Source: a virus (Duplodnaviria > Caudoviricetes). From it: DNA of 30,538 nucleotides. Positions 2,623 to 30,538 of the stretch are shown here, piece by piece (position 1 is the stretch's first letter; every line of letters starts with the position of its first letter). The notes under the pieces were generated by a model. The model did no database searches. It saw only the letters and a program-made list of their open reading frames with translations, and had not been told where the DNA came from. The position numbers were made by a program, and so were the translations under genes. The stretch covers positions 1 to 30,538 of IMG/VR virus record IMGVR_UViG_3300049893_001639; one strand, given 5' to 3'.

Positions 2623-2625
2623 TAA

Positions 2626-2930: not shown

Positions 2931-2951
2931 ATAAGCAACGATGAACAAGCG

Positions 2952-3005: not shown

Positions 3006-3027
3006 TGCGTAACGAACAGGAGAAAAT

Positions 3028-3240: not shown

Positions 3241-3250
3241 ACAATAAGCA

Positions 3251-3336
3251 ACCTAACGCTTCGGTTCAGGCGGCGGAGAGAAAGCTATGAGTTCAGAGAC
3301 GACGTTGATCCGCTCGCCTGCAACCGATTGTTATGC
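3251..3336 (+). repeat. attC-like site with RBS and ATG in its loop
   Basis: ACCTAAC..TCGGTT CAGGCG GCGGA-loop-TCCGC TCGCCTG(C)AACCGA..GTTATGC. Confidence 0.8.
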
Positions 3337-3859
3337 GGCGTTTCGTTGTGTGGTGGCTGATCCACCGTGGACACCATCACTGCACCGGAACACAGTAGGG
3401 AGACGGGAGCCGAAGAACGGATACCGAGCAGGGCCACAGAAGTATTACCGGACGCTGACCTTGCCGGAGATTTGTGAGTTGCAGCCAGTGACGGCAGACA
3501 AGTGCCATTTGTGGTTGTGGGTTCTGAGCCAGCACGTTGATTGGGGCTACGCGGTCGCAAGAGCCTGGGGCTTTGAACCGCAGCAGATGTTGACGTGGGC
3601 CAAGCCGACGTTGGGGACAGGACAGTTTCAGTGCAACACGGAACACGTCTTGATGTGCCGCAAGGGCGGGCCGGTGGATAATGCATTTGGGATGACTTGT
3701 GGCACATGGTTTGAGTGGCCGAGACGGGAGCACAGCGAGAAACCAGCGGAGTTCTTTTCGTTGGTTGAGCGGGTGAGTCCGGGGCCACGGTTGGAGATGT
3801 TTGCGAGGACGCGACGACAAGGCTGGGAGTCATGGGGCGACCAGATCGAAGCCGCATAA
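3287..3859 (+). CDS. MT-A70-family N6-adenine methyltransferase (cassette 3)
   Basis: 'VVADPPW', 'HLWLWV', 'AWGF', 'TWAK', 'TEHVL', 'HSEKP', 'LEMFAR...GWESWGDQ'. Confidence 0.9.
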   Translation: MSSETTLIRSPATDCYAAFRCVVADPPWTPSLHRNTVGRREPKNGYRAGPQKYYRTLTLPEICELQPVTADKCHLWLWVLSQHVDWGYAVARAWGFEPQQMLTWAKPTLGTGQFQCNTEHVLMCRKGGPVDNAFGMTCGTWFEWPRREHSEKPAEFFSLVERVSPGPRLEMFARTRRQGWESWGDQIEAA

Positions 3860-3934
3860 CGTGGAGCTAACCGGCGAGCCACGCAGTGGCGAGTCCAGTG
3901 AGCGAAGCGAACGAGGTTGAGCGTATGGTTAGAG
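3854..3934 (+). repeat. attC-like site
   Basis: GCATAAC..GCTAACC...GCCAC GCA GTGGC...GAGCGAAGCGA..GGTT(G)AGC..GTTAGAG. Confidence 0.75.
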
Positions 3935-3937
3935 GGC

Positions 3938-4155
3938 AGAACTATGGGCAGCACGGCATGTAGGGCGGCAGGGCTAACGGGGCGTGACAACCCTGAAACG
4001 CTCTCGCCTACCCGAAACGCAACTAGCTCCGGCAGGCGGCGAAGCGCGAGGGTTTGCGTCACGGCGATGACACGCGCAGAGCTTGGCCGAAAGGTGGGTA
4101 GAACCGAAGTTAACGCCACCCCCGGAGTAAACCTTCGGCTGCTGTCCATACCTGT
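3938..4155 (+). ncRNA. Putative structured non-coding RNA (cassette 4), family unknown
   Basis: Closing stem TATGGGCAGC/GCTGTCCATA with a G-U pair; nested stems CAGGG/CCCTG, CTACCC/GGGTAG, AGCTC/GAGCT, CCGAAG/CTTCGG; GCC-GAAA-GGT GNRA loop; no convincing ORF. Confidence 0.5.
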
Positions 4156-4158
4156 GCC

Positions 4159-4218
4159 CTCTAACGCTGGCGGTGAGGGGCGCGAAGTATGAGCGTACCC
4201 TCCACCGCTTTGTTGGCC
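4159..4218 (+). repeat. attC-like site with ATG in its loop
   Basis: CTCTAAC..GCGGTG AGGG-loop-CCCT(C)CACCGC..GTTGGCC. Confidence 0.8.
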
Positions 4219-4695
4219 GGTCTGCATCAGAGCCAGCTTGCCCCGGCTGACAACAAGTTCCACGTCGGCAACGGAGACGACGGCAAGCACTACTGGCTGA
4301 CGCCGCCGGACCTGTACGCCGCGCTGAACGCGGAGTTCGGACCGTTCGACTTCGATCCATGCCCGTGGCCAAAGCCGGAAGGATTCGACGGCCTAACCTG
4401 CGAATGGGGCCAGCGCAACTACGTCAACCCGCCGTTCGGATCCATCATGCACAACGGGAAGAAGAAGGGGCCGACCGCTTGGATGCGGAAGGCGATTGAG
4501 GAACAGCGCAAGGGCAAGCTGTCCGTGGTGGTGTACCCGGTGGACAAGTGGGTGCTGATGATGCTGGCCGCAACCGGAGCGGCCAACGTCCGCAACCTGG
4601 GCGACGTGCGGTGGATGGCCACCGAGGACGGATCCCAAGGCAAAGGCACCGGGCGGCACATAGCCGCGTTCATTCTGTATCCGGCCAACCATTGA
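4189..4695 (+). CDS. Phage Dam-like N6-adenine DNA methyltransferase (cassette 5)
   Basis: 'HYWLTPP', 'FDFDPCP', 'DGLTCEW', 'YVNPPF', 'WMRKAIEE' are typical of the small phage Dam family. Confidence 0.8.
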   Translation: MSVPSTALLAGLHQSQLAPADNKFHVGNGDDGKHYWLTPPDLYAALNAEFGPFDFDPCPWPKPEGFDGLTCEWGQRNYVNPPFGSIMHNGKKKGPTAWMRKAIEEQRKGKLSVVVYPVDKWVLMMLAATGAANVRNLGDVRWMATEDGSQGKGTGRHIAAFILYPANH

Positions 4696-4756
4696 TTATA
4701 CGGATCGGCTTTTGTCGATAATAATATCTGCAAATGCCGCCTGCAAAGGAAATGCC

Positions 4757-5077
4757 ATGATCCGTCGTAATAAATACGGCAACCGTAGAATCGCCTTCGA
4801 TGGACAAAACTTTGACTCCATGAAGGAGTACCGCAGGTATCAGCAGTTACGATTGTACGAGAAGGCAGCAGAGATTTCTCAGATAGAGATACACCCAAAA
4901 TTTGCGTTGTGGGTAAATGACAAATTCATTTGCTCTTACATTGCCGATTTCCGCTATTTAGACCACGGCACAGGCCAATGGGTCGTCGAAGACTCCAAGG
5001 GCGTGCGAACACCGGTCTATCGATTGAAAAGGAAATTGATGAAGGCGTGCCTGGGAATTGAAATTTTGGAGACGTGA
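4757..5077 (+). CDS. DUF1064-family PD-(D/E)xK protein
   Basis: 'NKYGNRR...FDSMKEYRRY...YIADFRY...VVEDSKG..TPVYRLKRKL'; start moved to ATG 4757 (AGGA SD). Confidence 0.85.
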   Translation: MIRRNKYGNRRIAFDGQNFDSMKEYRRYQQLRLYEKAAEISQIEIHPKFALWVNDKFICSYIADFRYLDHGTGQWVVEDSKGVRTPVYRLKRKLMKACLGIEILET

Positions 5078-5382
5078 AAATGAAGATCACAAAGGAGGCC
5101 GATATCCAGCGAATGATTGTCGAAACGCTGGAAACTCTCGCCGAGCAAAACAAGCTGCGCTATGTCAGTCATCCCCCAATGCGCACCATCATTGTGTTTT
5201 TGCCCCACGCGGTGTGGGTAATCGAAACCAAATCGCAGAAAGGAAAGTTCGGAGAGCATCAATTACTGTGGCAAAATTGGTTTCTCAACGCAGGAGACGC
5301 CGATCTGTATCACTATTCCATGCCGCGCACCGTGAAGGACGCTAACGCGTTAATTGATGCGCTGCTAAAGGAGTCGGGATGA
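5074..5382 (+). CDS. VRR-NUC-like protein
   Basis: 'EADIQ..I', 'IETKSQKGK...HQ..WQ', 'RTVKDA'. Confidence 0.6.
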   Translation: MKMKITKEADIQRMIVETLETLAEQNKLRYVSHPPMRTIIVFLPHAVWVIETKSQKGKFGEHQLLWQNWFLNAGDADLYHYSMPRTVKDANALIDALLKESG

Positions 5383-5792
5383 GTGAACCTGACTGGGCCG
5401 ATAGCCAGGCGGAAGAGTTGTGGATTGTTAATCATCCGTCTAAGGTGCAATTCCAAGTTTTGATAGATGCCATCGCCGCCGCGTTGCGTGAGGAGCGGGA
5501 GCAGTGCGCCAAAACCGCAGAAGATCATGAGTGCGTTTCGGTGCGTGCACTGGGTAGCAACTTACCTTGTCACTGTTCATCGTCAATAGCCGACGCCATT
5601 CGGCAAGGAAAGAAGGCTCCCCCGATCTTCTCACGCGATGAACTGATTGCCCGCGCAAGAGCTTTCATAGTCGATACCTACGGCCCCGTGCGGGAGTCTA
5701 AGGATGAGGATGGCTGGTATGAGAGACTAGGACTGCTGGTGTCATTTGCGCATGATATGACGGAGTTAAACCGAGGTGAATCCGATGTATGA
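5379..5792 (+). CDS. Hypothetical phage protein
   Basis: ATGA overlap with the upstream gene; 'EREQCAKTAE...IADAIR' is a common phage motif. Confidence 0.7.
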   Translation: MSEPDWADSQAEELWIVNHPSKVQFQVLIDAIAAALREEREQCAKTAEDHECVSVRALGSNLPCHCSSSIADAIRQGKKAPPIFSRDELIARARAFIVDTYGPVRESKDEDGWYERLGLLVSFAHDMTELNRGESDV

Positions 5793-5991
5793 TATTATTG
5801 TGCGGTTTCCATCGAAGGAACTGGCTGATGAGTGGTGCAGTCATATGAGTGACGGGTGGGGCGAAAACTTTTGCAATTTTAGCTACTGGCGCAAGAAAGA
5901 AGGCGCGAGAGATAGCAAGCCGTTTGAAGCGGTCACAAGTTCTGCCCCGGAAGGAACGCCGGTGTTTTTTGTGACTGAGATTTTTGATTAG
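5785..5991 (+). CDS. Hypothetical protein
   Basis: GAGGTG SD before ATG 5785; overlaps the upstream stop. Confidence 0.65.
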   Translation: MYDIIVRFPSKELADEWCSHMSDGWGENFCNFSYWRKKEGARDSKPFEAVTSSAPEGTPVFFVTEIFD

Positions 5992-6214
5992 CGGGTATTG
6001 TGAGAAGAATTGAAGGAAGGGGAGGTGATGCCAAGTGGGTTTTTGTACTTGCGACAATCCGGTATATTTGGGAGGCTGTCAGAAACATAATAAATCCGCG
6101 TCTTAGCCGGGGGCAGCGCATCCGGCCAAAAACACGCAAAGTTTTAGGTTTATTTTTTGATTGAAAGGTAATATAATAACGGCACGGGGGAGGGAGATAG
6201 GGGCAAGTGCTGAA

Positions 6215-7207
6215 GTGTTGGTGGTGAGGACGCCGTTTAGAGTTTCGTTTTGCGGGGGAGGCACCGACTTCCCAGCTTGGTTTGTCACCAGGCCGGGGGC
6301 CGTCGTCTCTGCCGCCATCAATCGTTATTGTTACCTCACGCTCCGTCACCTACCGCCGTTTTTTGACTACGACTCGCGTTTCGTTTGGTCCCGCATAGAG
6401 CAGGTCAGTTCTCTCGACGAAGTTTATCACCCCGCCATCAAGGGCTGCCTTAAGTTCTTAGGTTTAGAGAAACCATCTATTCAACTCCACCACGACGCCG
6501 ACCTACCGGCCCAGTCGGGCACGGGCAGCAGCGCGGCGTTTACCGTCAGCTTACTACACGCATTGTATGCCGAGAGGTGCCGTCTGGTCACGGCGGAACA
6601 GCTGGCGATTAACGCCATGCAGGTAGATCAAGACGTAGTGGGCGAGGTTACTGGTTGTCAGGACCACGTGGCGGTGGCCTGCGGGGGCGTCAATCATATC
6701 GATTTCGGCCCCGCCAGGCACGACTTCCGGGTAAAGATGCTGCCCGTAGACACTCAGGCGTTGGGGCATCACCTGATGATGTTCCACACCAAACAGTATA
6801 GGCAATCTACGGCAAGTGATATAGAGACTATTAAGTGGCAGGGCCGTCCTGACGAGCAGTTGTTGAGGGCGCAGTACGAGCTGACGCCCAGGTGCTTAAT
6901 GGCCTTGGCCGATGGTGATTATGCTGCGTTGGGCAAGGTGTTGAGCGAGAGTTGGTTGTTGAAGCGGGAGCTGGCCAAGGAGGTCAGCAACTCCCACGTA
7001 GACGATTGTTATTGGCGTGCGCTGGACGCCGGGGCCTATGGGGCCAAGCTGTGTGGCGCGGGAGGCGGGGGCATATTGTTGGTGGCCGCCCCGCCCGATA
7101 AGCGTGAGCGGTTGAGGCAGGCGCTGGCCGATTGTGTATATGTGCCGTTTGGCGTTGATCACGAGGGCAGCCGCCTGGTCTATCGCGGCGGGCAGGAGCT
7201 GGGGTGA
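6215..7207 (+). CDS. GHMP-family sugar kinase (HddA/heptose-7-phosphate kinase-like)
   Basis: 'RTPFRVSFCGGGTD', 'PAQSGTGSS', 'GCQDH', 'KLCGAGGGG'; start probably GTG near 6215 rather than 6161. Confidence 0.85.
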   Translation: MLVVRTPFRVSFCGGGTDFPAWFVTRPGAVVSAAINRYCYLTLRHLPPFFDYDSRFVWSRIEQVSSLDEVYHPAIKGCLKFLGLEKPSIQLHHDADLPAQSGTGSSAAFTVSLLHALYAERCRLVTAEQLAINAMQVDQDVVGEVTGCQDHVAVACGGVNHIDFGPARHDFRVKMLPVDTQALGHHLMMFHTKQYRQSTASDIETIKWQGRPDEQLLRAQYELTPRCLMALADGDYAALGKVLSESWLLKRELAKEVSNSHVDDCYWRALDAGAYGAKLCGAGGGGILLVAAPPDKRERLRQALADCVYVPFGVDHEGSRLVYRGGQELG

Positions 7208-7305
7208 TGTTGGCTGATACAGACTACTAATTACTATTACCCAGTTGTAAATCAGACCTGGGTTAACCAGGAGAAAGTCTGATACGTATCAGACAGATGT
7301 GAATC

Positions 7306-7797
7306 ATGGAACTAAAGCTAAGCGACTTAAAGCAAGACAAAAAGAATGCCCGTAAGCACACTTCTCGCAATATAGGCATGATAGAGGAGTCTTTACGAGC
7401 GGTCGGCGCGGCTAGAAGCGGGGTTATAGACGAAAATGGGACTATCTTAGCCGGCAATGGAACCTATGAGGCGCTTACTAATGTCGGAATAGATAAGGTC
7501 AAGGTGGTAGAAGCCGATGGTAATGAGTGGGTAGTCGTCAAGCGCAGCGGATTGACCGAGGAGCAAAAGCGCAAACTCGCACTGGCTGACAACCGAGCAA
7601 GCGACATAGCCGAATGGGATGCAATAGCACTGTCCGAGTTGGACATTGATTTATCTCCATTCTTTTCTGAGCAGGAACTTAAGGATATTGGTATAACCGT
7701 CCCAGACTTCAATGGATTAGACGGAGATTCTCAATCGCGATTAGATCAAAAGAAGCCAGTCGTTTGTCCAGCGTGCGGTCATGAGTTTACGACTTGA
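7306..7797 (+). CDS. ParB/Srx-like N-terminal domain protein with C-terminal Zn ribbon
   Basis: 'NARKH', 'VIDENGTILAGNG', 'LALADNR..DIAEWD', 'CPACGHEF'. Confidence 0.85.
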   Translation: MELKLSDLKQDKKNARKHTSRNIGMIEESLRAVGAARSGVIDENGTILAGNGTYEALTNVGIDKVKVVEADGNEWVVVKRSGLTEEQKRKLALADNRASDIAEWDAIALSELDIDLSPFFSEQELKDIGITVPDFNGLDGDSQSRLDQKKPVVCPACGHEFTT

Positions 7798-8464
7798 TTT
7801 TTGTAGCTATGATGCCGCAAAGTATGCGGTTGAACACTGGCACTATTCGCGGACAATGCCAGTAGGCAAGATGGTTAAGTTAGGAGTATGGGAGGAATCG
7901 GTATTTATTGGCGCAGTGATTTTTGGGCTCGGCGGCGGCAATGCGTGTAACGGCAAGCGTTATGGACTGGCGCGAAATTTTGAAATGGCAGAACTTGTGC
8001 GGATCGCACTACGTAAGCATAGGGCTCCGGTGAGTCGAATTATTGCTATAGCGTGCCGGTTGCTTCATCGGCAGTCACCCGGATTGCGTCTAATAATCTC
8101 ATATGCAGACCCGTCTCAGTCTCATCATGGTGGAGTTTATCAAGCTGCCGGCTGGATTTATACCGGACGCTCCAGCGCAAGTTGGAAGGCGGTATGGCCA
8201 GATGGGCGTCAGGCGCACGCTAGAATTGCATATGGTCACGTGCAATTTGGGATAAAGAAAACTGTAGACATTTCAAATGCTAAGAAAGTTTTAGTCCCCG
8301 GCAAGCACCGTTATTTGTACCCCTTGAATGACGAAATAAGGCAGCGAATCTTGCCGCTAGCCAAGCCATATCCCAAGCGCGCTGCAAGTGAAACCATCGA
8401 CACGCCGATCCACCAGATCGGAGAGGGCGGGGAAGCACCGACCGCAGCGCTCCAACCAATCTGA
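7781..8464 (+). CDS. mom: Mom-like DNA (adenine) modification protein, GNAT fold
   Basis: 'HWHYS', 'ELVRIAL', 'ISYADPSQSHHGGVYQAAGWIYTG', 'KHRYLYPL...PYPK'. Confidence 0.8.
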   Translation: MSLRLDFCSYDAAKYAVEHWHYSRTMPVGKMVKLGVWEESVFIGAVIFGLGGGNACNGKRYGLARNFEMAELVRIALRKHRAPVSRIIAIACRLLHRQSPGLRLIISYADPSQSHHGGVYQAAGWIYTGRSSASWKAVWPDGRQAHARIAYGHVQFGIKKTVDISNAKKVLVPGKHRYLYPLNDEIRQRILPLAKPYPKRAASETIDTPIHQIGEGGEAPTAALQPI

Positions 8465-14213: not shown

Positions 14214-17090
14214 ATGCCTATTATAGAACACTTATTGAGACTCGCTGGGTACGCTAAGACGCCCTCAGCCAACAGGCAGGTGGCAGTTGCCGATCCAGGT
14301 AAGAGCCAAGAGCCGCCTACTATAAGTTCGGCGGGTAGCTTTTTTGGCTTCTACGGCAGGCCACATCTCGGCTCGGCTTTTTTACCCACCCCGTATAATC
14401 CTGATACGCTTGTTCAGCGTAAGGGGCTGAAGACCTACCGCACCATGCTCACCGACGAGCAGGTGAAGGCGGCGCTATTGGCCAAGAAGTACGCCGTGCT
14501 CAGTAACGGGTACGAGATACAGCTGGCGCAGCTGCCCGAGAGCAAGACGCAGCCGGGGCAGCCGCCAGCTAAGCCCGGCGAGAAGAAGCCGCCGTTTGGC
14601 CAACCGTTATCTGAAGAAAGCGAAGAGGCAAACGGCGAGGAGGCTGGCAACGAGGATGAGTTGTTCTCCCGTCGTTATCTGTCCCCTGGTCAAAACGGCA
14701 ATGGTAATAAGGTGAGTAATGGGCGTGACCTCGGAGGCAACGGCTTTAACGCCGAGCCGCCGTTCAACGGGGCAAGCGGCGAGGGCGAGCAGTTTCTAGG
14801 GGGCAACGGAGCAGAGGAGCCGGTTGAGGAAGAGGAGGAGCCGCGTGATCCCTTGTTGGAGGCCGCCGAGGAGCACAAGGAATTTATCGAGTTCGTGTTT
14901 GAGGAGATGAAGGGCAGCTTTAACAGCAAGCTGTTGAACATCATGTCGGCGGTGGAGTTCGGCTACTCAGTCAGCGAGAAGGTTCTGCAGAAGATCGACT
15001 TTGGGGACTTTGAGGGCAAGTGGGGGCTGCAGGACATCTTGACGCGCCCGCCCGAGGACATCGAGTTTCAAATAGACGCCTACGGGCGATTAACTCCCAA
15101 TGGCGTGATGCAGTTTGGCGATTACCTACCGGCTGACAAGTTTGTTATTTACTCCCATGCGCAGCAGTTTGGTAACCTATATGGCAACAGCGACTTGCGA
15201 GCGGCTTATAGATGCTACAGCGATGATACTGAAATTTTAACCGAATATGGCTGGAAGATGTTGTCTGCGGTGACGATAGAAGATCGAGTTGCGACACTGA
15301 ATCCGAAAACCGACACGCTAGAATATCAATATCCCAGCAAGCTGTATGCATATAGACATCAAGGCAAGATGTTTCATCAGGGCGGTCGATTTATCGATTT
15401 TTTAGTTACGCCCAATCATGAAATGTGGGCTAAGGGAGAAAATGAATCGAAATTCAGAACAATTCCGGTTCAAGATCTGCCGAGGCATGCCAACTATAAA
15501 CGCAATGCTAGATGGATTGGCGTAGAACCGTCAACGTTCGATTTGCCTGATTTTTTCGTTGACCAGATTGTAGCTAATCAATTTGGCCGATATAGAGAAC
15601 GTAGAAATTATCAATCGATGCGTCATATTCCGATAGAATCGTGGCTGAGTTTCTTTGGAGTATGGTTAGCAGAGGGCCATACTTGGCAACGTAAGGATGG
15701 TAACAAGCAGCGCATCGTGGGTATTACGCAAAATCCCGGTCCCAAATTAGAGTTGATAAAGAAGTGGGTAACCGACTGTGGCTTTGCCTACTACGAACAC
15801 AAAGGAACAGAGACTCATAAAGCCAGTATTATTGAGATATGCAATGTTCAACTATTCGAGTATTTAAAGAGGTTTGGCGGTTCTTATGATAAGTTTATCC
15901 CGCATGAACTTAAGCAGCTATCACCGCGATTGCTACGCATACTTTACGATGCATTGATGCTTGGAGACGGTAGGCACAATAGGGAATATTGTACAGTGTC
16001 ACGTCGGCTCGCTGATGATGTGGCCGAAATTATTTTCAAGATGGGATATGCTGCTACAATTAGTGTCGAAAAATTAAAACGATTCGGCCCCATCTTTGTA
16101 ATAGGCAGAAATGAGCGCCGAATTGGCAATACGCGAGTCAATGAACATATAGATAGACGAGAATGGATTGATTATGACGGGATGGTTTATTGCTTAGAAG
16201 TGCCCAATCATATTGTCTATGTCCGTCGAGATGGAAAAGCGGCGTGGTCGAGGAATAGCTATTGGGCCAAGGATAACATGCTGAAGCTGATGGCGGTGTC
16301 GCTAGAGCGCTATGCCGAGCCGATAGCCGTGGCCACGTACAAGGGCCTGTTGGACGGCGACCAGCGCGACGATTTGCAAGGCTTTTTGAAGAACCTGCAG
16401 AGCCGGTCGGGCATCATCTTGCCTGAGTCGGTTGTGTTGGATTTTAAGTCCCCGCCGCCCAGGGCCGCTGAGGCGTTCATCCCGGCCATTAACCTGTATG
16501 ACCAGCACATCCGCATGGCCATCCTGATGCCAGGTCTGATCGGGCTGAGCGGTGAGCAGACCACTGGTAGCTTTGCGCGGGCCGTCAAGGAGTTTGACGT
16601 CTTCTTGTGGATACTTGGCCATCTGCGCAAGGACATAGAGACCGTCGTCAACGAGCAGATCATTAAGCCGCTGATCGATATGAACTACGAGGTCGAGCAT
16701 GGGCAATACCCCAAGTTCAAGTTCAAGGAGATCACCGAGGAGGCGCGGCGAGCGCAGTTCGAGTTGTTTATAACGGGCTTAGGCAGCGGGGCCTTGACCA
16801 AGGGGCCAGAGGATGAGGACAAGCTGCGAGAGCTGATAGGGTTTGAGCCGCTGCCGGAGGACTTTGAGCCACCAGAGCAGCCTAGTCCGTTCGGTAACCT
16901 GCCCTTTGGCGGGCCTCAGCCTCCTGAGCAGCAGCCGCCGCAGTTTGGCGGGCCGCCTAACGGCAATGGTAACGGCGGGTGGCCGCCAGCTGAGGAGGAG
17001 CCTGTTGACGAAGACGAGTTCCAGTTCAGCGCTGATCAAGAGGCGCGGCTGGTGGAGTTCGTGAACAAGATGAGGAGTAAGACGGTATAG
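14214..17090 (+). CDS. Portal protein (DUF935/Mu gp29-like), intein-containing
   Basis: 'YRTMLTDEQVKAAL', 'AVEFGYSVSEKV', 'GNLYGNSDLRAAY', 'ERYAEP', 'VNEQIIKPLIDMN'; position after TerL. Confidence 0.9.
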   Translation: MPIIEHLLRLAGYAKTPSANRQVAVADPGKSQEPPTISSAGSFFGFYGRPHLGSAFLPTPYNPDTLVQRKGLKTYRTMLTDEQVKAALLAKKYAVLSNGYEIQLAQLPESKTQPGQPPAKPGEKKPPFGQPLSEESEEANGEEAGNEDELFSRRYLSPGQNGNGNKVSNGRDLGGNGFNAEPPFNGASGEGEQFLGGNGAEEPVEEEEEPRDPLLEAAEEHKEFIEFVFEEMKGSFNSKLLNIMSAVEFGYSVSEKVLQKIDFGDFEGKWGLQDILTRPPEDIEFQIDAYGRLTPNGVMQFGDYLPADKFVIYSHAQQFGNLYGNSDLRAAYRCYSDDTEILTEYGWKMLSAVTIEDRVATLNPKTDTLEYQYPSKLYAYRHQGKMFHQGGRFIDFLVTPNHEMWAKGENESKFRTIPVQDLPRHANYKRNARWIGVEPSTFDLPDFFVDQIVANQFGRYRERRNYQSMRHIPIESWLSFFGVWLAEGHTWQRKDGNKQRIVGITQNPGPKLELIKKWVTDCGFAYYEHKGTETHKASIIEICNVQLFEYLKRFGGSYDKFIPHELKQLSPRLLRILYDALMLGDGRHNREYCTVSRRLADDVAEIIFKMGYAATISVEKLKRFGPIFVIGRNERRIGNTRVNEHIDRREWIDYDGMVYCLEVPNHIVYVRRDGKAAWSRNSYWAKDNMLKLMAVSLERYAEPIAVATYKGLLDGDQRDDLQGFLKNLQSRSGIILPESVVLDFKSPPPRAAEAFIPAINLYDQHIRMAILMPGLIGLSGEQTTGSFARAVKEFDVFLWILGHLRKDIETVVNEQIIKPLIDMNYEVEHGQYPKFKFKEITEEARRAQFELFITGLGSGALTKGPEDEDKLRELIGFEPLPEDFEPPEQPSPFGNLPFGGPQPPEQQPPQFGGPPNGNGNGGWPPAEEEPVDEDEFQFSADQEARLVEFVNKMRSKTV
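15213..16256 (+). mobile_element. Intein with LAGLIDADG homing endonuclease in the portal (348 aa)
   Basis: Block A 'CYSDDTEILTEYGW', block B 'VTPNH', 'FFGVWLAEG' and 'DALMLGDG', block F 'VYCLEVPNH', end 'WSRN|S'; visibly AT-richer than the flanks. Confidence 0.93.
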
Positions 17091-17094
17091 GCCA

Positions 17095-19479
17095 ATGACG
17101 CCTAGCTCTTCTAACCGCTTAGAATTCTTAGACAGGCTGATCAAGCTGATGCAGCTGAGGCAGACGGCGGCGCGTCGGTATCACCTGCCGGGTGAACACG
17201 AGCAGGAATCGCATGGTGGGGGTGGAGAGCATCAAGAGAAGCCGATTGGTAGCGGCGGCAAGATTCATTTAACCAATGAACAGCTTGATAAGAAATTTGG
17301 CAAGCGCGGCACTAAGAATAAAGTTCCACCCGGCACTCAATTCGGTTCGATACTTGCCATTAAATTAAAGTCTGGCGGACTGGTCATGGGCCAAGTGACT
17401 CCGCATGAGAATTGGGCAAAAGGTGGGAAAGACACTGGCAAGTTGATATTGACGACCAGCAAAGGCGAGCGTATCGAGATAGACCGCGGCATGAAGTATG
17501 TCCCGGCTATAGGTGAAAATGCGGTAGGCGGCTTGTGGCAACACGATCCTGACAAAAAAGGCGGAGATATAGAAAGATCGTGGCGTCTAACTCGCGCTGT
17601 TGCTGAACACGCTGAACAAGCCATAGCCAAAGAATATCACCTGCCCGGCCAGCACGAGCAGCAGAGTCATGCAGGCGGTGCATCTGATAATCGTGATCGA
17701 GATTCAAAGGATAGATACAACCATGCTGAAGCGGTTGCGACAGACCCTCATGCCATAGCTCATGTAAGTCTTACGCCTGGCCAACGCAAACAACCGTGGC
17801 AAATGAGCCAACAAGAATACGAATCGTTGCCGGTCGTATATCGCGGAGGCAAAGTAGGTACTGGCTTCATGTTTGTCACTCAAGATAGGCGGTTAGCGGA
17901 AATTCACGGGCAAGGTAGAATCACCGCATTTAAAGTGCTGCCGTCGTCCAAAGTATTCGCCGACCCAGAGATTGAGGGCGAACAGGATAGGGCGTTGAAT
18001 GGATTGGAATCGTTAAAGATAGCGTCAGCCGTGGTTCACGCCAACGACTTGATTCCTAATTTTAGCTATGGCGCATGGAAGCATGAGAGCGGTAAACGCT
18101 ATCATCTCCCTGGTGAACACGACCAAGAGGCCCACGGCAACCGAGATGGCGCAAGCGAGGACAAGCCTGGTGGCAAGGCGGATGTGACTCGGACGCCTGA
18201 GTTCAAGAAATGGTTTTCTGGGTCAAAAGTTGTTGACGCTAAGGGCGAGCCGCTGGTTGTGTATCATGGGACATTCAGAGGGAACAATTTCGAAGAGTTC
18301 AGGTCGACTAAATTCCCAGGTGTCGCCGGTTACTTTTCTACAAGTCCAGAGCTCGCGAGCCTAGCTGCTGAACCGATGTTTAGGAGCGAAGAGGAAAACG
18401 CCAACCCGCACGTTATCCCAGCTTATCTCAGTCTCAAGAATCCATTAGACGCTACGAGTCTAGGCGGCGACCCTGGCGGCCACATAAATTCCTACACGTT
18501 CAGGGAGATCATTTCTAAGCTAGGGTTAAAGGCGAAGGAGCACGAGATCACCGACGTAGACGAGTTTCGCTGGGAGGGCAGAAAGAACCCAGTATGGTCG
18601 GCGCTAGCTACGCCACAATTTATAGAAATTGTTAAGCGCAACGGTTACGACGGGGTTAAATTTCACGATGTGCAATTGCCTGAATATGTCTCAGGACCAA
18701 CTGTCGAATATGTAGCGTTCGCATCTAACCAAGTCAAATCCAAATTCAATCGCGGAACCTTTGACCCCAAAGACCCCCGCATCAGCTACGACCGTTCATC
18801 CAATCAAGTCCATGTTTGCGCTAATGGCAACGGCTACCGCCTGGCCTTGATGGGGTTCGACTTCACCGAACGATCATATCACTTGCCAGGGGAGCATGAT
18901 CAGGAGAGCCATGCAGGAGATGATAAGCCGAGCAGTCGTATTAGCAAACGGCGCGAGTTTTCAGGCAGTCCTGTTCATACTCGTACCCGTTGGACTAAGC
19001 TGGAAACTGGCGAGCGCGGCGAGAGCATAGCGATAAATTACTTACGTAAGCTTGGGTTTAAAGATGCACGCAAGTTCGAGTTTAGCGGGCGCAATAATTT
19101 GCCGGTAGATTTAATTCACGATCATGAAATATACGAAGTTAAGGCGGGCATGATTTACAATCAACCCGACGCGCAAAAGTGGCGCTTGACATTAGGGCAA
19201 CCAGGGAAAAAAGAAACCGAGTGGTTGCATAAAGCGCGAGATTCAGAGCGAGCGGCTTGGAATAAGCGCAAGGCGCAACTAGTTATAAAGCGTAAGCGCG
19301 AATTAGTGCAGAAATTGTCCAAAGAGTTAGGTAGGCCGGTTAAGTTAAAGACCCTTACGATGGTCATAAACCCAGATACGCAGCGCGCCGATTTGCACGT
19401 ATTTGATGGCACGCATCCTATTATCAGGTGGCGGTCGCCAGAAGCGCAAAAGGCGTATGTGGGTACGATTAAATTTTAA
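17095..19479 (+). CDS. Head-associated polyvalent protein: four YHLPGxHxQxxH-tagged modules (unknown, ART-like, ART-PolyVal-like, PD-(D/E)xK nuclease)
   Basis: 'VVYRGG..FVTQDRRLA'; 'FKKWFSGSKVVDAKGEPLVVYHGT..YFST..YLSLKNP..GYDGV'; 'GERGE..VDLIHDHEIYEVK'. Confidence 0.75.
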   Translation: MTPSSSNRLEFLDRLIKLMQLRQTAARRYHLPGEHEQESHGGGGEHQEKPIGSGGKIHLTNEQLDKKFGKRGTKNKVPPGTQFGSILAIKLKSGGLVMGQVTPHENWAKGGKDTGKLILTTSKGERIEIDRGMKYVPAIGENAVGGLWQHDPDKKGGDIERSWRLTRAVAEHAEQAIAKEYHLPGQHEQQSHAGGASDNRDRDSKDRYNHAEAVATDPHAIAHVSLTPGQRKQPWQMSQQEYESLPVVYRGGKVGTGFMFVTQDRRLAEIHGQGRITAFKVLPSSKVFADPEIEGEQDRALNGLESLKIASAVVHANDLIPNFSYGAWKHESGKRYHLPGEHDQEAHGNRDGASEDKPGGKADVTRTPEFKKWFSGSKVVDAKGEPLVVYHGTFRGNNFEEFRSTKFPGVAGYFSTSPELASLAAEPMFRSEEENANPHVIPAYLSLKNPLDATSLGGDPGGHINSYTFREIISKLGLKAKEHEITDVDEFRWEGRKNPVWSALATPQFIEIVKRNGYDGVKFHDVQLPEYVSGPTVEYVAFASNQVKSKFNRGTFDPKDPRISYDRSSNQVHVCANGNGYRLALMGFDFTERSYHLPGEHDQESHAGDDKPSSRISKRREFSGSPVHTRTRWTKLETGERGESIAINYLRKLGFKDARKFEFSGRNNLPVDLIHDHEIYEVKAGMIYNQPDAQKWRLTLGQPGKKETEWLHKARDSERAAWNKRKAQLVIKRKRELVQKLSKELGRPVKLKTLTMVINPDTQRADLHVFDGTHPIIRWRSPEAQKAYVGTIKF

Positions 19480-21201
19480 AGCAGTATGGATTATCCGCTG
19501 AAAGAAGTAGAAGCAGAATTTTTAGCCGCGCTAGATAGTGAAGGCGAGGCATGGTTACGCGAAATGACGGAGCGATTACGCAACGTGCCGAAGAGTCCGC
19601 GCTACGCCTACGCGCGCGCCAATGGTAACGGCTACCGCCTGGCCCTGATGGGCTTCGACTTCACCGACCTGCCGCTGCGCCGTAAGCAGTTCGCGGCTTA
19701 CTTGAGACGTAACGGGGTTGCGCGAGACGTAGCGGAACGGGAAGCGGCGGGGCTTAGGCACTCGTGGGAGTTTGCGGCGTCCACTAGCGGCAAATCCTTC
19801 TTTCAGACTCTTCCCGCATGGCGCGGCACATTGGACCTAACCCCCGGCAGCGATGGGCTTAAGCTGTTCGATGAGTACCAGCATGTGAGGGGATACCATT
19901 TGCCTGGGGAGCACGATCAGCAGAGCCATGCTGGGGAAGATCAGCGTGTTGATGATGATAAGAACTATTTAGGCGGAGGTTCGCGATTGCCTTCGATGGT
20001 TTATCGAGGCGGAAGTAATCAAAATACGTCTGAAAGTTTTCCAGCCGGGGTATATGTTTCAACTAATCGAGATGCGGCTAAGCAATGGGGGCCAGTAGTC
20101 GAGCATAAGATAGTGAAACAACCTAGATTACTTGACCTTGGTAACTGGCACAGCCTTGGCGCTAAGAGCATCGTAGCGCGGCTCACTGGCCAAAGACCTG
20201 GCGGCATGGATTTTAATGACTATGATCAGGCGGCTGCTGAATTATTTATTCAAATGCCAGACGAGCTGGTACGAGTGCTGCGTAAGAATGGGTTTGATGG
20301 CGCGCGGTTCGGTCAAGATGCCTTTTTGATCGGGAAGTTAGATGATTATACTAAGAACGTGAGGCGGCACGAAGCCTATCAGCCGAACGATGACGAGGCG
20401 ATTAAGGTACATCACCAACGCGAGATGACCAAGGCCGAGCGCCGGTGCGACTTCGCGGCTATTAAGAAGCAGTTCGACGAGGATGCCTTAAAGATAGACT
20501 TGGCCATGCGTGAGCCGATCAAGACCGCTCGTGACGCCCTGTTGGCCATGATCCGGCAGTGGGGGCCTAACGAGGTAACGCCTGAGTTCATCCAGTCGGT
20601 TAAGTTAACGACGGGGCCGGAGCTGGGGCAGCTGCTGAACGAATACCTGCTAGCTACGTGGCGCAAGAACAGGGACTTGGCGCTGGCTGAGCTGCCTGAG
20701 GGAACGCAAGCTAGGTTAGCTGGGATGAGAAAGTACCATCTGCCGGGGCAGCATGATCAGCAAACGCACGCCGGGGATGATGAGGGTAACGGCGGCGAGT
20801 ATAATCGCGCAGGCAAGGTAGTCAGTGGGCTAAAGGTACGGTCTTTTGTGCCCAATCAAGATTCTATTGCTGCCTCGCTTACTGATTATGAGATTTTGCC
20901 GGGTATACGCGAGGTGCCATTGGCGTCGTTTGATCCTCAGTATCAGCCGGTACGCGATGATCGCACAAAAGCATTGGCTGAGCAGATTAAGGCCAGTGGT
21001 GAAATTAACCCGTTAATAGTCGCGGTGGATTCTAAGGGGCCTTACATCATCGAGGGCGGTCATCGCTTTGATGCCATGTATTTGTTGGGTGTGAGGTCGT
21101 TTCCAGCGATGGTAGTGATTGATAAAGAAGCTGATGTGCCGAGATTTAAATATGCCCATAAGTATCACTTACCTGGCGAGCATGATCAGCAGAGTCATGC
21201 C
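17179..21201 (+). repeat. Seven dispersed in-frame repeats encoding YHLPG(E/Q)H(D/E)Q(E/Q)(S/A/T)H(G/A)
   Basis: Copies start at 17179, 17635, 18100, 18877, 19894, 20734 and 21163; codons differ synonymously. Confidence 0.95.
18820..19667 (+). repeat. 50-bp direct repeat (18820-18869 and 19618-19667) encoding ANGNGYRLALMGFDFT
   Basis: 46/50 identical, and all four differences are synonymous. Confidence 0.9.
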
Positions 21202-23583
21202 GGAGATAGGGAAGTTGACGATTATAAACGAGAACTGCAGGCTGATGTAGACCAAGCTCCGATAGTTAAACGATTACGCGACGCCATAGTGGCGAAGGAA
21301 GATCACGTTTATAGAATAATAACTGGGCGCGAGTATGATAACGCGCTAAAATCTGGCGTCTTGGTGCCTGGGTACGCGGCGGATACCGGCGGGACGGTTA
21401 ATTTTTCTAAAGAGCCGATTCCATTGTACGGTGGTAGCGCTGTACTGTCTCACGGAATGGTTGTGGAGGTGCCAGAATCGGCTTTTGATTCTCCTAAGAT
21501 TTATCCAGGGTCTAAGGATTTGTACCTTTCTTCCGCCGTTAATGTGCCGTTAAATAAAGCCTCTCGTGCTTGGGGCATTCAATTTGTCAAAGAAGGCATC
21601 AAGGTGGCCTTGCTTGACAGGGTTATAACTAAAAAATATGCCTCTGCTTTCAAGCCCGACGTAGCCGAGCGTTACTTGAAAAACAGAGCGTTAGCTATCC
21701 AAGGCATCGTAGACGACGACCTAACCAAGCAGGTCAAGCTAATCCTGTTCAATGCTTTAAAGGCCGGCCGCCACGCGCAAGAGACGATGGGCGAGCTAGC
21801 CGAGGCGTTCTTTCCGTGGGTGGGCGATCCCGAAAAGATAGTGCCTAGCGGCGTGACCGGAACGCAAGAGGATATATTACAAGCTTATCGGCTAGAGAAC
21901 ATCGTACGCACTGAGACCAGCACGGCTATGAGCGAGGGCAGGGCAGCCGTGGCCGATGCGGCGGCTGACTACGTGAGAGGCTACGAGTTGTCGGCGATTT
22001 TAGACGAAAGGACTTGTTTCAGAAAGGGTGCATTGATAAAACTTGGAAATGGCAAATATGCACCTATCGAAACGATCACTCCCGGCACAACAATTATTTC
22101 CGGTGCCGGTCATCAAAAACGAGTCATCGCAGCTTGGCGATATCCAGCAAGGCACTGGCGCAAGATTACAGTCGCCGATGGTAGATCGGTCATCTGTACA
22201 TACACGCACCCATTCTGGACGCAATCAGGATGGCGCGAAGCCGTGGACTGTACGCCGATTGAAACTCATATCGGAACAGAATCTTGGGAGAGGGTCGAGT
22301 TGGAGGGACTGCCTACAATGTGGCCAGAAGTTTCACCAATTCAACAGCAATCCGCGCAAGTTTTGCTCAAATCGATGTTGTATTGCGTGGGCACAAATCC
22401 ACTTGCGCAAAATCAAACCATGTCGGCATTGCGGTCGTCCTCTTTGCAAAAAAGCTGGAACAAAGAAGATATTTTGCAGCCGAAAGTGCTGGATTGCGTC
22501 CAAGGGAGCCTGGATAGAGATGGTATGCATCCAATGCAAGACCACGTTTCGTCGGATGCACAAGGAAATACAGCGAAAGGGGCACGTAGGAAAATATTGC
22601 AGCCGAAAGTGCTACTTGGCACAGAAGGCAAATCGGACAAAGAAGACATGTCCTATTTGCAAGAAGGGGTTTTCAGTTCCTACCTCCAATGCCAATCGTT
22701 ATATGGCGTGTTCGAAAAAATGTGGAAGGCTAAGACGTCGAAAGGGAATGCCGCTAAAAACAATACGTCGCAAATGCCCAGGATGCAGCAAGGGTGTTGT
22801 ACGTATTCCAACGCCAAGTCGGACAAAGATCAAGAAAGCGTGGTGCAGTATGCGATGTCTAGCGGCATGGCGAATCAAACAAAGAATAGATACTCCATGC
22901 GCTACATGCCACAAAATCATGACACATCCGCTGGGGCAACATCCGATTTTTTGTTCGACTGCATGTTATATGAAAAGCAGCACGCCTACACGCACAGAGC
23001 AAATGGCAGAGAATGTGTTGATATCAATGAACATCCCATATCAAAGAGAGGTCAGACTCAAGAATTATTCGTTAGATTTTCTGATAGACGGATGGCTCGC
23101 ACTAGAGATGGATGGAGTCTTTTGGCACAGCAAGAGCAAGGAGAGGGATGCAAAAAAGAATATTGCGATAAAGAGTGCGGGGTACGAGTTATTGAGATAC
23201 CAATGCAACAACGCCACACCGAGGGCCGCCGTATCACTTCGTCGCATATTGACCATGCGGTTAAACCGACGGCTACGAAGTTTATCGCAGTCGTTGCCAA
23301 CGAAGCAATCGAAGAACCCGAATGGGCCTATGATATCGAAGTCGAGTGCGATCATACATACATCGCCAACGGTTTGATTGTCCACAATACAACTGCTTGT
23401 GAACTAGCCGATGGCGAGAAATTTATGATTAACGACCCGCGAGCCAAGCAGTTAATGCCTCCTCTTCACTGGAATTGCCGCACCGTACCAATTTTTTTGA
23501 CTACCGACGATGAGCCGATAGACTGGTCGTCAGACGAAGAGCTAGATGCCGTGATAGACGCCATCCCAAAAGGGTTTAAGTAA
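19486..23583 (+). CDS. MuF (Mu gp30/SPP1 gp7-like) minor head protein with three tagged inserts (ART-like, ParB-like, ART-like) and an intein
   Basis: 'RLENIVRTETSTA', 'SAILDERT|T..C', 'PPLHWNCRT'; ParB-like 'INPLIV..YIIEGGHRF'; ART-like 'VYRGG..GVYVSTN..A' and 'VYRI..VNFS'. Confidence 0.85.
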   Translation: MDYPLKEVEAEFLAALDSEGEAWLREMTERLRNVPKSPRYAYARANGNGYRLALMGFDFTDLPLRRKQFAAYLRRNGVARDVAEREAAGLRHSWEFAASTSGKSFFQTLPAWRGTLDLTPGSDGLKLFDEYQHVRGYHLPGEHDQQSHAGEDQRVDDDKNYLGGGSRLPSMVYRGGSNQNTSESFPAGVYVSTNRDAAKQWGPVVEHKIVKQPRLLDLGNWHSLGAKSIVARLTGQRPGGMDFNDYDQAAAELFIQMPDELVRVLRKNGFDGARFGQDAFLIGKLDDYTKNVRRHEAYQPNDDEAIKVHHQREMTKAERRCDFAAIKKQFDEDALKIDLAMREPIKTARDALLAMIRQWGPNEVTPEFIQSVKLTTGPELGQLLNEYLLATWRKNRDLALAELPEGTQARLAGMRKYHLPGQHDQQTHAGDDEGNGGEYNRAGKVVSGLKVRSFVPNQDSIAASLTDYEILPGIREVPLASFDPQYQPVRDDRTKALAEQIKASGEINPLIVAVDSKGPYIIEGGHRFDAMYLLGVRSFPAMVVIDKEADVPRFKYAHKYHLPGEHDQQSHAGDREVDDYKRELQADVDQAPIVKRLRDAIVAKEDHVYRIITGREYDNALKSGVLVPGYAADTGGTVNFSKEPIPLYGGSAVLSHGMVVEVPESAFDSPKIYPGSKDLYLSSAVNVPLNKASRAWGIQFVKEGIKVALLDRVITKKYASAFKPDVAERYLKNRALAIQGIVDDDLTKQVKLILFNALKAGRHAQETMGELAEAFFPWVGDPEKIVPSGVTGTQEDILQAYRLENIVRTETSTAMSEGRAAVADAAADYVRGYELSAILDERTCFRKGALIKLGNGKYAPIETITPGTTIISGAGHQKRVIAAWRYPARHWRKITVADGRSVICTYTHPFWTQSGWREAVDCTPIETHIGTESWERVELEGLPTMWPEVSPIQQQSAQVLLKSMLYCVGTNPLAQNQTMSALRSSSLQKSWNKEDILQPKVLDCVQGSLDRDGMHPMQDHVSSDAQGNTAKGARRKILQPKVLLGTEGKSDKEDMSYLQEGVFSSYLQCQSLYGVFEKMWKAKTSKGNAAKNNTSQMPRMQQGCCTYSNAKSDKDQESVVQYAMSSGMANQTKNRYSMRYMPQNHDTSAGATSDFLFDCMLYEKQHAYTHRANGRECVDINEHPISKRGQTQELFVRFSDRRMARTRDGWSLLAQQEQGEGCKKEYCDKECGVRVIEIPMQQRHTEGRRITSSHIDHAVKPTATKFIAVVANEAIEEPEWAYDIEVECDHTYIANGLIVHNTTACELADGEKFMINDPRAKQLMPPLHWNCRTVPIFLTTDDEPIDWSSDEELDAVIDAIPKGFK
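22015..23388 (+). mobile_element. Intein in the MuF domain (458 aa) with an out-of-frame endonuclease
   Basis: 'CFRKGALI', 'CTYTHPF', 'AYDIEVECDHTYIANGLIVHN|T'; removing it restores DERT-TTAC. Confidence 0.92.
22043..23377 (+). CDS. Nested +1-frame ORF: six CxxC...CSxxC zinc-finger repeats plus DUF559/Vsr-like endonuclease (true start uncertain, perhaps near 22259)
   Basis: 'PTRTE...YSLDFLIDGWLALEMDGVFWH...RDAKKN...GYELLR'; repeats FCSNRC, FCSRKC, YCSRKC, ACSKKC, WCSMRC, FCSTAC. Confidence 0.85.
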   Translation: MEMANMHLSKRSLPAQQLFPVPVIKNESSQLGDIQQGTGARLQSPMVDRSSVHTRTHSGRNQDGAKPWTVRRLKLISEQNLGRGSSWRDCLQCGQKFHQFNSNPRKFCSNRCCIAWAQIHLRKIKPCRHCGRPLCKKAGTKKIFCSRKCWIASKGAWIEMVCIQCKTTFRRMHKEIQRKGHVGKYCSRKCYLAQKANRTKKTCPICKKGFSVPTSNANRYMACSKKCGRLRRRKGMPLKTIRRKCPGCSKGVVRIPTPSRTKIKKAWCSMRCLAAWRIKQRIDTPCATCHKIMTHPLGQHPIFCSTACYMKSSTPTRTEQMAENVLISMNIPYQREVRLKNYSLDFLIDGWLALEMDGVFWHSKSKERDAKKNIAIKSAGYELLRYQCNNATPRAAVSLRRILTMRLNRRLRSLSQSLPTKQSKNPNGPMISKSSAIIHTSPTV

Positions 23584-23590
23584 TGGGCCG

Positions 23591-23773
23591 ATGGAAACGA
23601 TTCGGAGGAAAATTCAGCACGAGGACAAGGTCAACGTAGCTTTGGCTAATCTAACTCGCATAGAGGAACTTATCGCTCTCAATAAGCTCAGGCGGACATA
23701 CCCCCATATGGACACGTCGGCGACGGACAAGGAAATTGAGCGGCTGCTGAGAGAAGAGGCTAAAGGCGGGTAA
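23591..23773 (+). CDS. Hypothetical protein
   Basis: Packed helical ORF. Confidence 0.55.
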   Translation: METIRRKIQHEDKVNVALANLTRIEELIALNKLRRTYPHMDTSATDKEIERLLREEAKGG

Positions 23774-23779
23774 TAATCA

Positions 23780-24121
23780 ATGATCAAGTTTTTCTTGCAG
23801 CTGCTGCTTTGCTGGGTCGTGTTGGCGGACAAGCCGCTGTACGTGGTCGACGGCGATACCTTTGACGTGCAGCTCCAGGTTTGGCACAACTTATCGATCA
23901 AGGAGCGCGTGCGCGTGTTGGGTATAGATACGCCGGAGCTGAAGGGCGCTAGCCGTGATAAGGCATTAGAGGCTAAGGCATTTACTCAAAAGTGGTTGGC
24001 CCAAGGACCGTTTAGTTTAGAGACCTGTCAGCGAGACGTCTTTGGCCGTATATTAGCCAAGGTTAGTCGGGGCAGCAGCGTGTTGGCTGAGGAGCTGCGC
24101 AGCGCTGGTCATGTTAAGTGA
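23780..24121 (+). CDS. Thermonuclease (SNase-like) with signal peptide
   Basis: 'VVDGDTF', 'RVRVLGIDTPE', 'DVFGRILA'. Confidence 0.9.
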   Translation: MIKFFLQLLLCWVVLADKPLYVVDGDTFDVQLQVWHNLSIKERVRVLGIDTPELKGASRDKALEAKAFTQKWLAQGPFSLETCQRDVFGRILAKVSRGSSVLAEELRSAGHVK

Positions 24122-29916: not shown

Positions 29917-30538
29917 ATGAAGCGTTATGAGTTGGATATTACCTTAGTATGCCTCGGCATGCCGATGAGCGCCGAGACGATCTCGTCGGGTCAGTCTCTC
30001 GGCGGTTCAGAAACGGCAGCTGCACAAGCCGCTGCGGCGCTGGCTAAGTTGGGTCATCGCGTCACTCTGTTCTGCAATACCGAAAAGCTCCAGACCGACA
30101 GTGGCGTCACTTATACGCCTATGGGCTGGGTGACGGGGATGGACGGTACTGCACAATTTCCGAAGGGTTTGTTTGACCACGCTCGCACCGCGCCTAGCGA
30201 CGTGATGCTGGTGCAGCGGCAGCCCGTGTTGTTGCAATTCGATTATCCGAGCAAGGCTAATATCTTGTGGCAGCACGACCTGGCTACCCACACCGGACCG
30301 AGCCAGTTCGGCGCGGTGATTTGGAACATTGATAAGATACTGGTGCTCAGCCAGTTTATGAAGAAGCAGTACCAGTCGGTCCATGGCGGGGTTGATGCCT
30401 TATATCACGTTACGCGCAACGGGATCGACCTGGGCCTCATTGACAAGGTGCCTGCTCAGCAGCGTGATCGCTTTAAGCTGATGTTCACGGCTAGGCCCGA
30501 GCGCGGACTAGATATCTTGTTGACGCGAGTATGGCCAG
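29917..30538 (+). CDS. GT-B (GT4-like) glycosyltransferase, truncated by the window end (absent from the ORF track)
   Basis: Manual translation: MKRYELDI...'SLGGSETAA..LAKLGHRVTLFCN','ILWQHD','VLSQF','TRNGID','FTARPERGL'. Confidence 0.88.
   Translation, partial: MKRYELDITLVCLGMPMSAETISSGQSLGGSETAAAQAAAALAKLGHRVTLFCNTEKLQTDSGVTYTPMGWVTGMDGTAQFPKGLFDHARTAPSDVMLVQRQPVLLQFDYPSKANILWQHDLATHTGPSQFGAVIWNIDKILVLSQFMKKQYQSVHGGVDALYHVTRNGIDLGLIDKVPAQQRDRFKLMFTARPERGLDILLTRVWP

Follow-up and report, generated by a model that had tools for sequence, protein, structure and literature searches.

Inteins with a nuclease encoded in another reading frame or on the opposite strand have been described in actinobacteriophages by Gosselin, Arsenault and Gogarten (Gosselin 2025; bioRxiv 10.1101/2025.01.02.630785). 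The main text of that preprint reports an endonuclease VII-like nuclease in frame 3, an antisense LAGLIDADG nuclease and an antisense VSR-like nuclease with an HHpred match to 3R3P, and states that inteins of the minor capsid protein (IPR006528) had non-canonical nucleases only. A cyanobacterial DnaX intein with an out-of-frame LAGLIDADG nuclease and a putative internal Shine-Dalgarno site has been described by Phillips, DeSimone and Gogarten (Phillips 2026; bioRxiv 10.64898/2026.09.14.751524), who credit Gorbalenya 1998. Here we analyze an insert of this kind in the MuF head morphogenesis gene of a tailed phage, on the IMG/VR virus record IMGVR_UViG_3300049893_001639, positions 1 to 30,538; this whole stretch of 30,538 nucleotides is called the window, and it is a phage contig with terminase, portal, MuF and capsid genes. 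An earlier note on the window, made from its letters alone, had read the insert as an intein with its endonuclease overprinted in the +1 frame and suspected that similar architectures were already reported in phage inteins. The two preprints bear out that suspicion, and the kind of layout, the host gene and the proposed origin are already in print. What is new is the zinc-repeat, Vsr-like nuclease family, which is found beside or inside MuF genes in three arrangements.

The MuF insert is like the Gosselin 2025 inteins in having a full intein, a non-canonical nuclease and the same proposed origin by invasion of a free-standing gene. Their VSR-like nuclease is antisense, however, whereas the one described here lies on the same strand in the +1 frame and has Cys4 repeats (3-9 in the family); the words “zinc” and “DUF559” do not occur in their main text. 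Because part of their VSR-like protein, a run of turns and helices, is left unexplained, our antisense group may overlap theirs. With the DnaX intein the MuF insert shares a same-strand overlap, a disordered filler in the intein frame and purifying selection in the nuclease frame, but there the nuclease is of the LAGLIDADG type, the host is a bacterial replication gene and mini-intein alleles are known. The nuclease domain resembles that of I-Bth0305I and the EDxHD enzymes (Taylor et al. 2011, PMC3239194), being C-terminal and Vsr-like with D196, H213 and D222 kept; the parts of the literature drawn on here for EDxHD enzymes and fractured genes (PMC3239194; Dassa et al. 2009, PMC2677866) likewise have N-terminal DNA-binding modules and an association with phage introns and inteins. 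In those parts the nucleases lie within a group I intron or between the halves of a split intein, while here the intein frame is contiguous, and I-Bth0305I has NUMOD/helix-turn-helix (HTH) modules where the MuF nuclease has tandem Cys4 repeats. The ShiLan insertion (Arsenault et al. 2025, PMC11855218), as far as the consulted part of that paper describes it, also combines an out-of-frame nuclease with a host frame kept open, but with an HNH nuclease, a methylase host and no splicing domain. A literature survey of open papers and the main texts of preprints turned up no description of MuF inteins with a zinc-repeat Vsr-like nuclease on the same strand; nor did it turn up the mirrored avoidance of codons or the three MuF-associated states described below.

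We propose that the insert is a two-gene mobile element made up of an intein and an overlapping nuclease gene in the +1 frame. The intein would splice itself out together with a filler of ~330 residues, the nuclease would be translated separately, by weak initiation inside the MuF transcript, and it would cut intein-free MuF alleles, into which the whole insert would then be copied. To this reading as a whole, with splicing, separate production of the nuclease and homing into empty MuF alleles, we assign a probability of about 0.6. The features are collected in Table 1.

Within the intein there are just three stops in the +1 frame, at 22034, 22037 and 23375, as against 21 in the +2 frame. The earlier note had both frames stop-free for more than 1.3 kb; both are open at that length (458 and 445 codons), but only ~950 of the 1335 open bases of the +1 frame are protein-like. 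The stop-free tails that extend over the splicing halves on either side depart slightly from expectation (P0 0.012 and 0.037) and are not conserved, identity between the window and its relative L089 there being 18% in the +1 frame versus 61% in the intein frame. In the protein-like part, the six zinc-finger repeats and the DUF559/Vsr-like nuclease named in the earlier note were recovered by motif, Pfam and structure match. The nuclease domain has a Pfam DUF559 match (E 5.9e-6, ~23033-23233), and PDB 3R3P, the catalytic domain of I-Bth0305I, is its top match by sequence (E 1.3e-4), in Foldseek (E 3.1e-4) and in VIA-align (Z 11.2, root mean square deviation 3.2, 92 aligned). The model of the +1 protein has a predicted local distance difference test score (pLDDT) of 91. 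I-Bth0305I residues D196, H213 and D222, which in the consulted part of the original report were mutated to inactivate the enzyme (PMC3239194), align to the first D, the H and the last D of the domain. It is thus an EDxHD (Vsr-like) nuclease in having a Vsr-like C-terminal domain with conserved acidic residues and a histidine, and six Cys4 repeats take the place of the N-terminal NUMOD2/HTH region of I-Bth0305I; no NUMOD family occurs among the 25 shown of the 51 families matched by 106 members of the nuclease family. The fold searches used the nuclease domain alone and the repeats were characterized by Pfam leads only, such as the zf-FCS (MYM-type) match in 12 of the 106 aligned members. The nuclease is the likely agent of the intein's spread.

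Relatives occur in three arrangements. An HMMER search over representative proteins with the +1 nuclease yielded 1392 relatives at E<=0.001, none of them above ~41% identity, and the Atlas clusters of the family are mostly viral; a word-index protein search with the +1 protein found nothing, and single-protein scans of viral contigs gave no usable relative, L001 being rejected as an unrelated multi-Hint protein. A viral scan over 17 of 64 collection parts gave 79 loci, from the best 80 of 163 confirmed among 606 stretches. The search motif is present in 78 of the scan loci, of which 3 show the +1 layout and 20 an open codon-aligned antisense frame. Fifteen of the 20 rows are intein-borne, with 14 in MuF (three being one sequence) and one in another gene. 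The antisense form in an intein is known from 13 distinct MuF loci (L037 included) plus L040, and in MuF it sits at the same intein site as the +1 form. Pattern scans that fixed the distance and not the frame gave 20 rows: 14 were +1, all in MuF and all with the intein frame open; 4 were in frame, occupied a different MuF site and had 0-1 repeats; and 2 were in +2, with the host frame broken in both. The +1 layout is present in 13 distinct MuF loci besides the window (one from a separate scan); we call these and the window together the 14 sense loci. As a separate gene <=400 bases from MuF, in either orientation, the nuclease occurs in 14 of the 78 rows (13 distinct), and three inspected MuF genes beside such a gene are empty at the intein site. 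Three of three pattern scans of genome contigs found none. Annotated phages gave only weak partial matches to the window nuclease, in 4 records, and an antisense relative matches 18 annotated phage records, mostly of mycobacteriophages, where it is free-standing beside a methylase.

Several individual loci deserve mention. At L102 (1405-2262; mycobacteriophage KilKor, NC_053209.1), an unannotated antisense nuclease relative lies between methylase genes, and similar matches occur in 17 mycobacteriophage records. In L040 (2488-4275, minus strand), the intein with the antisense nested form lies in a gene other than MuF, of unknown family. L091 (601-3572, minus strand) is a fractured gene: a split intein divides DnaE, and a zinc-repeat nuclease gene stands free between the two halves. 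In L095 (3-2373, plus strand), a portal-MuF fusion, the zinc-repeat nuclease of the intein is in frame with the N half, and the C half, in a different frame, has an ATG of its own; this is either a split intein or a break. The L017 intein has a nonsense codon at +1 codon 263, just before the nuclease domain, with the intein frame still open. A second MuF site with in-frame DUF559 inteins was seen in L037, L056, L057, L060, L073, L079, L092, L097, L098, L100, P0156 and P0165; L037 has both inteins, the antisense one and an in-frame one.

The codon usage of the overlap shows that both frames are kept open. When the +1 protein was kept and its synonymous codons were redrawn, 16.3-18.7 intein-frame stops were expected over 310 codons; none is observed, and none of 5000 redraws reached zero under any of three codon models. 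With the intein-frame protein kept instead, 6.9 stops were expected in the +1 frame (P(0)=0.0002). In a +1 overlap, an intein-frame stop arises only from a nuclease codon that ends in T before AA, AG or GA; a synonymous change always suffices to avoid it, and the intein frame is held open at no cost to the nuclease. Third-position T before these pairs is found at 0 of 81 places in the window versus 66 of 221 elsewhere, at 0/982 versus 623/2602 over the 14 sense loci and at 195/825 over the 14 antisense loci, and the three Leu/Ser codons that read as stops backwards occur at 0/367 in the antisense loci and 77/414 in the sense loci; the zeros repeat what the open frames already say, and they are partly circular for L007, L017, L019 and the antisense set, which were picked for open frames. 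The controls are the frame-blind scans and the free-standing genes, whose 13 distinct loci all carry the expected stops in the -1 frame. In either orientation the nuclease gene is cleared of just those codons that would interrupt the intein frame, and synonymous changes alone achieve this.

Selection separates the two frames. For the pair L019/L099, the nonsynonymous and synonymous rates are dN 0.168 and dS 1.24 in the nuclease frame (dN/dS 0.14) and dN 0.311 and dS 0.265 in the intein frame (dN/dS 1.2), and the corresponding proportions give pN<pS in the nuclease frame in all six pairs tested. Identity is higher in the nuclease than in the intein frame in 91/91 pairs (74 versus 52%, 64 versus 33% and 57 versus 29% in the three closest), in alignments made in the nuclease frame, which favor that frame. 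Differences are most frequent at the third positions of the nuclease frame, whereas in the splicing half it is the intein frame that shows this pattern. The frame-specific dN/dS check asked for by the earlier note thus comes out in favor of the nuclease in the relatives, with purifying selection in its frame and relaxation in the intein frame; for the window the values are saturated, and since it has no close partner the evidence is at the level of the family. The one variant listed in the window's nuclease gene (22837; one contig, depth 4, possible error) leaves the protein unchanged in the nuclease frame alone. The +1 frame holds a genuine nuclease gene under selection.

Class 1 cis inteins have Cys or Ser as the N-terminal residue, TxxH in block B, a C-terminal His-Asn and Cys, Ser or Thr at C+1. 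The MuF insert has the N-terminal residue, block B, C-terminal His-Asn and C+1 residue of this class, a Hint fold and a site that is empty in homologues, and from its motifs and structure model it is predicted to splice itself out. The earlier note was right that its frame is open over 458 codons, and the host frame is continuous through it. It scores 39.1 bits with Pfam Intein_splicing (cut-off 35.8), and in Foldseek the best match of the intein-frame model is the gp41-1 intein (E 9e-6). The Hint fold is predicted only in the N and C halves, with pLDDT 84-96 over residues ~421-458, and the center proved as unrecognizable as the earlier note had found it, with no sequence relatives; a word-index search with the intein-frame protein found nothing. 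A canonical intein with an in-frame endonuclease was rejected, the intein frame being without any nuclease family and its central pLDDT <50, and a fractured gene with a split intein of the Dassa 2009 type is ruled out by the continuous host frame. A group I intron ribozyme was sought without any Rfam match at E<=0.1 in 21500-24000; the open host frame would be unneeded if the insert were such an intron. With an intact nuclease open reading frame in another frame between the splicing halves, and the intein frame open, the insert is a non-canonical intein.

Table 1. Features of the MuF insert and its surroundings in the window
Feature	Position	Strand	Details
MuF (SPP1 gp7-like) head morphogenesis protein, host gene	19486..23583	+	Pfam Phage_Mu_F E 4.3e-9, Intein_splicing
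N-extein flank of MuF domain	21685..22014	+	ends ...ILDERT; intein site empty in 16/16 non-self relatives
Predicted cis intein, 458 aa	22015..23388	+	C1; block B T62/H65; C-terminal H457-N458 (23383-23388); Thr is first C-extein residue
N-terminal splicing half (Hint)	22015..22280	+	pLDDT 90-97 over residues 1-80; Foldseek matches inteins
Intein-frame filler, ~330 aa	22281..23275	+	pLDDT mostly <50; no relatives by sequence; no stops
C-terminal splicing half	23276..23388	+	TIGR01443 intein_Cterm E 4.3e-7
C-extein of MuF	23389..23583	+	T-x-x-C...PPLHWNCR
+1 open frame, stop to stop, 445 codons	22040..23377	+	protein-like part ~22300-23250
Putative TTG start, best candidate by position	22259..22261	+	intein codon 82; family starts at codons 80-90; weak ribosome site
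Strong purine-rich, Shine-Dalgarno-like run	22286..22302	+	5 nt later a TTG in intein frame, not nuclease frame
Six tandem Cys4 repeats (CxxC-x12..20-CSxxC), +1	22310..22966	+	24/24 cysteines intact
Vsr/EDxHD-type nuclease domain, +1	22985..23250	+	D 23075, E 23105, D 23111, H 23126, D 23147

For the making of the nuclease, the earlier note had offered internal initiation or frameshift. The relatives favor internal initiation. In 6 of the 14 sense loci a TTG stands at intein codon 84-85, preceded at 5-6 nt by a purine-rich site that the intein's own G-D/G/T-x-L/V codons form, and in L083, L084 and L096 this TTG is the only ATG, GTG or TTG between the in-frame stop and the first cysteine; the six loci are not independent, because all belong to one clade. 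Purine runs and four-base motifs, without pairing energy, served as the criteria for a ribosome site, and a looser start test was passed by 8/14 sense loci, 4/14 antisense loci and 0/4 in-frame controls. The window copy gives no clear start signal; besides the TTG of Table 1, its candidate +1 starts are at 22043, 22049, 22058, 22103 and 22178. In 13 of the 14 antisense loci an ATG or GTG lies within 14 codons of the first cysteine, and a -10-like hexamer (by a loose motif) is found within 90 bases in 10/14 of them, and within 150 bases in 4/14 sense loci, the window not being one of these. No sigma-70-like promoter was found upstream of the nuclease in the window. Because the same-strand form is on the MuF strand, with no promoter-like site upstream of it in the window, it likely rides on the MuF transcript, and the idea of the earlier note that this layout decouples homing from late-gene expression is not supported. 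Such decoupling fits better with the antisense form, which has its own start codon and often a -10-like site.

It is unlikely, though a view to be taken seriously, that the family works as we propose while the window copy is silent or nearly so, its start signal lost as a first step of decay. The window has no good nuclease-frame start near the first repeat, its purine run at 22286-22294 points at the intein-frame TTG and reads with the same bases in three other runs, and decay is seen in the family (L017). Against this, all the cysteines and catalytic positions are intact, the +1 frame lacks every one of the 6.9 stops expected, and the variant at 22837, if not an error, is silent for the nuclease only. 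The nearest relatives, L081 and L089, also have weak starts with intact genes, and weak initiation may be the norm of this clade.

A +1 ribosomal frameshift inside the intein would yield an unspliceable fusion of the N-terminal parts of MuF and intein with the nuclease, which the virion might carry. In its favor, the +1 frame opens at intein codon 9 in the window (P0 0.012) and at codon 11 in L081, and starts are weak in this clade; yet L083, L085 and L096 have a +1 stop at codons 76-80, just before the aligned start with its ribosome site, no shared slippery site was seen by eye in the 14 aligned junctions, and the RNA at 22215-22335 has no stable or unusual fold (z -0.33). The antisense and free-standing relatives cannot frameshift, yet they encode the same protein from their own start. 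We consider frameshifting improbable, and internal initiation remains our preferred reading.

The intein site is empty in 16 of 16 non-self MuF relatives at 49-73% identity, and two of these have a different, in-frame DUF559 intein ~29 residues downstream. The exteins of the window and L089 were never sisters in 200 bootstrap trees; the test of horizontal spread gave a patchy presence of the intein, with p 0.166 in an approximately unbiased (AU) test for monophyly of these two exteins. Sense and antisense nucleases form one family apart from the in-frame group (support 100/99), each layout needs 2 changes on the tree, and L089 and L081 are the window's partners in the nuclease and splicing trees alike (the splicing tree omits L006). 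A quick tree with midpoint rooting places 10 of the 13 free-standing genes as the sister group of the nested forms, which fits an invasion of the intein by a free-standing gene, and L005, L012 and L014 among the nested forms; since tree support is modest and the root was not inferred, the direction of change is a hypothesis. We infer that a free-standing MuF-associated nuclease gene entered the MuF intein. The earlier note had such a gene invade a mini-intein: the 13 distinct relatives beside MuF and the sister group speak for its first half, and the mini-intein half has not been borne out, as no mini-intein allele of the MuF site turned up, no search having been aimed at one.

L012 (2929-3702) is free-standing beside an intein-free MuF and has 0 antisense stops where 6.5 are expected (0/500 redraws); it is possibly an escapee from an intein. 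As a tentative extension that we would not yet favor, these proteins could be natural zinc-finger nucleases in which 3-9 Cys4 fingers, their number differing among relatives, read the MuF target modularly and are joined to a Vsr-like cutter, one MuF-dedicated family cycling among free, antisense and +1 states and sometimes escaping with a fossil stop-avoidance, as in L012.

The nuclease might also be expressed for something other than intein homing, such as attack on competing phage or host DNA, or on mismatches as by Vsr. DUF559/Vsr folds do have several uses, and some relatives lie away from MuF, one of them in the intein of another gene (L040). Most of the multi-repeat top matches, however, lie inside or beside MuF, and the bipartite design of DNA-binding part and EDxHD domain is that of I-Bth0305I, which makes another target very unlikely.

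Several points weigh against the proposed mobile element. The window copy lacks an ATG, GTG or TTG with a good ribosome site near the first repeat; the six TTG loci are one clade that excludes the window; and 6/14 sense loci, the window included, fail the start test, while 4/18 control inteins pass it. The nonsense codon of L017 shows that such sense-locus genes decay. Extein monophyly of the window and L089 is not rejected at the AU value given above. The open-frame choice of L007, L017, L019 and the antisense set, and the alignment of pairs in the nuclease frame, have been mentioned, and the window is without a close relative (35-38% to the nearest in the nuclease), with dS saturated.

The weakest alternative, two assembly indel errors that put an in-frame nuclease out of frame, is already refuted: the intein is nowhere covered end to end by one independent record, and no pieces came from the likely source run, but indels would not clear ~17 stops from the other frame, the same layout stands in thirteen other loci, and six other runs supply nine pieces without a gap, with both junction zones covered. 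For this check, which the earlier note had called for, eight sequencing runs were compared with the window, the pieces being short contigs of depth 2-7. Together the nine pieces (151-266 bases) inside the intein show 2 differences and 0 gaps; the 5' switch zone, at 22196-22383, has cover from three of them and the 3' zone, at 23038-23412, likewise from three, and the intein stretches without independent cover are 22015-22195, 22384-22451, 22603-22613, 22765-22805 and 22957-23037. Three short partial matches in run X8 were dropped as unrelated DNA with loose ends. No joint of an empty allele was present in the eight runs. Among the runs listed for this sequence none is of RNA, which has no bearing on whether it is expressed.

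The intein splits the MuF domain directly after ...ILDERT, in a precursor of 1365 aa that would be 907 aa if spliced. The long N-terminal region of MuF (19486-22014) holds a ParB_N-like domain and repeated short motifs, and the preceding gene (17095-19479) has an ART-PolyVal domain; together they are a head module of the polyvalent-protein type. Genes for DNA and sugar modification are many at 20-8464 and 29917-30538 (radical SAM/B12, MT-A70, Dam, GHMP kinase, Mom, glycosyltransferases). A second intein-like insert of 348 residues (15213-16256, plus strand) lies inside the portal gene (14214-17090), with Cys first, R-N last and Ser following. Pfam divides the portal into two stretches, and an intein profile built here scores E 2.3e-5 on the insert, for which there was no Pfam match at E<=0.001 and only an E 0.1 match in NCBIfam; it may carry two in-frame LAGLIDADG motifs.

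The MuF inteins add a common phage case to a layout formerly called rare. Gene callers miss the overlapped nuclease, and the protein deposited for the MuF locus is the 1365-residue host including the filler. One nuclease family at one insertion site in two orientations makes a natural experiment, in which the entry of free-standing nucleases into inteins (the “splicing first” model) becomes testable. So does the question of how an overlapped gene gains its start signal, since in one clade the G-D-x-L codons of the intein supply both the ribosome site and the TTG. If the finger array reads DNA in modules, the family would offer a compact natural targeting scaffold.

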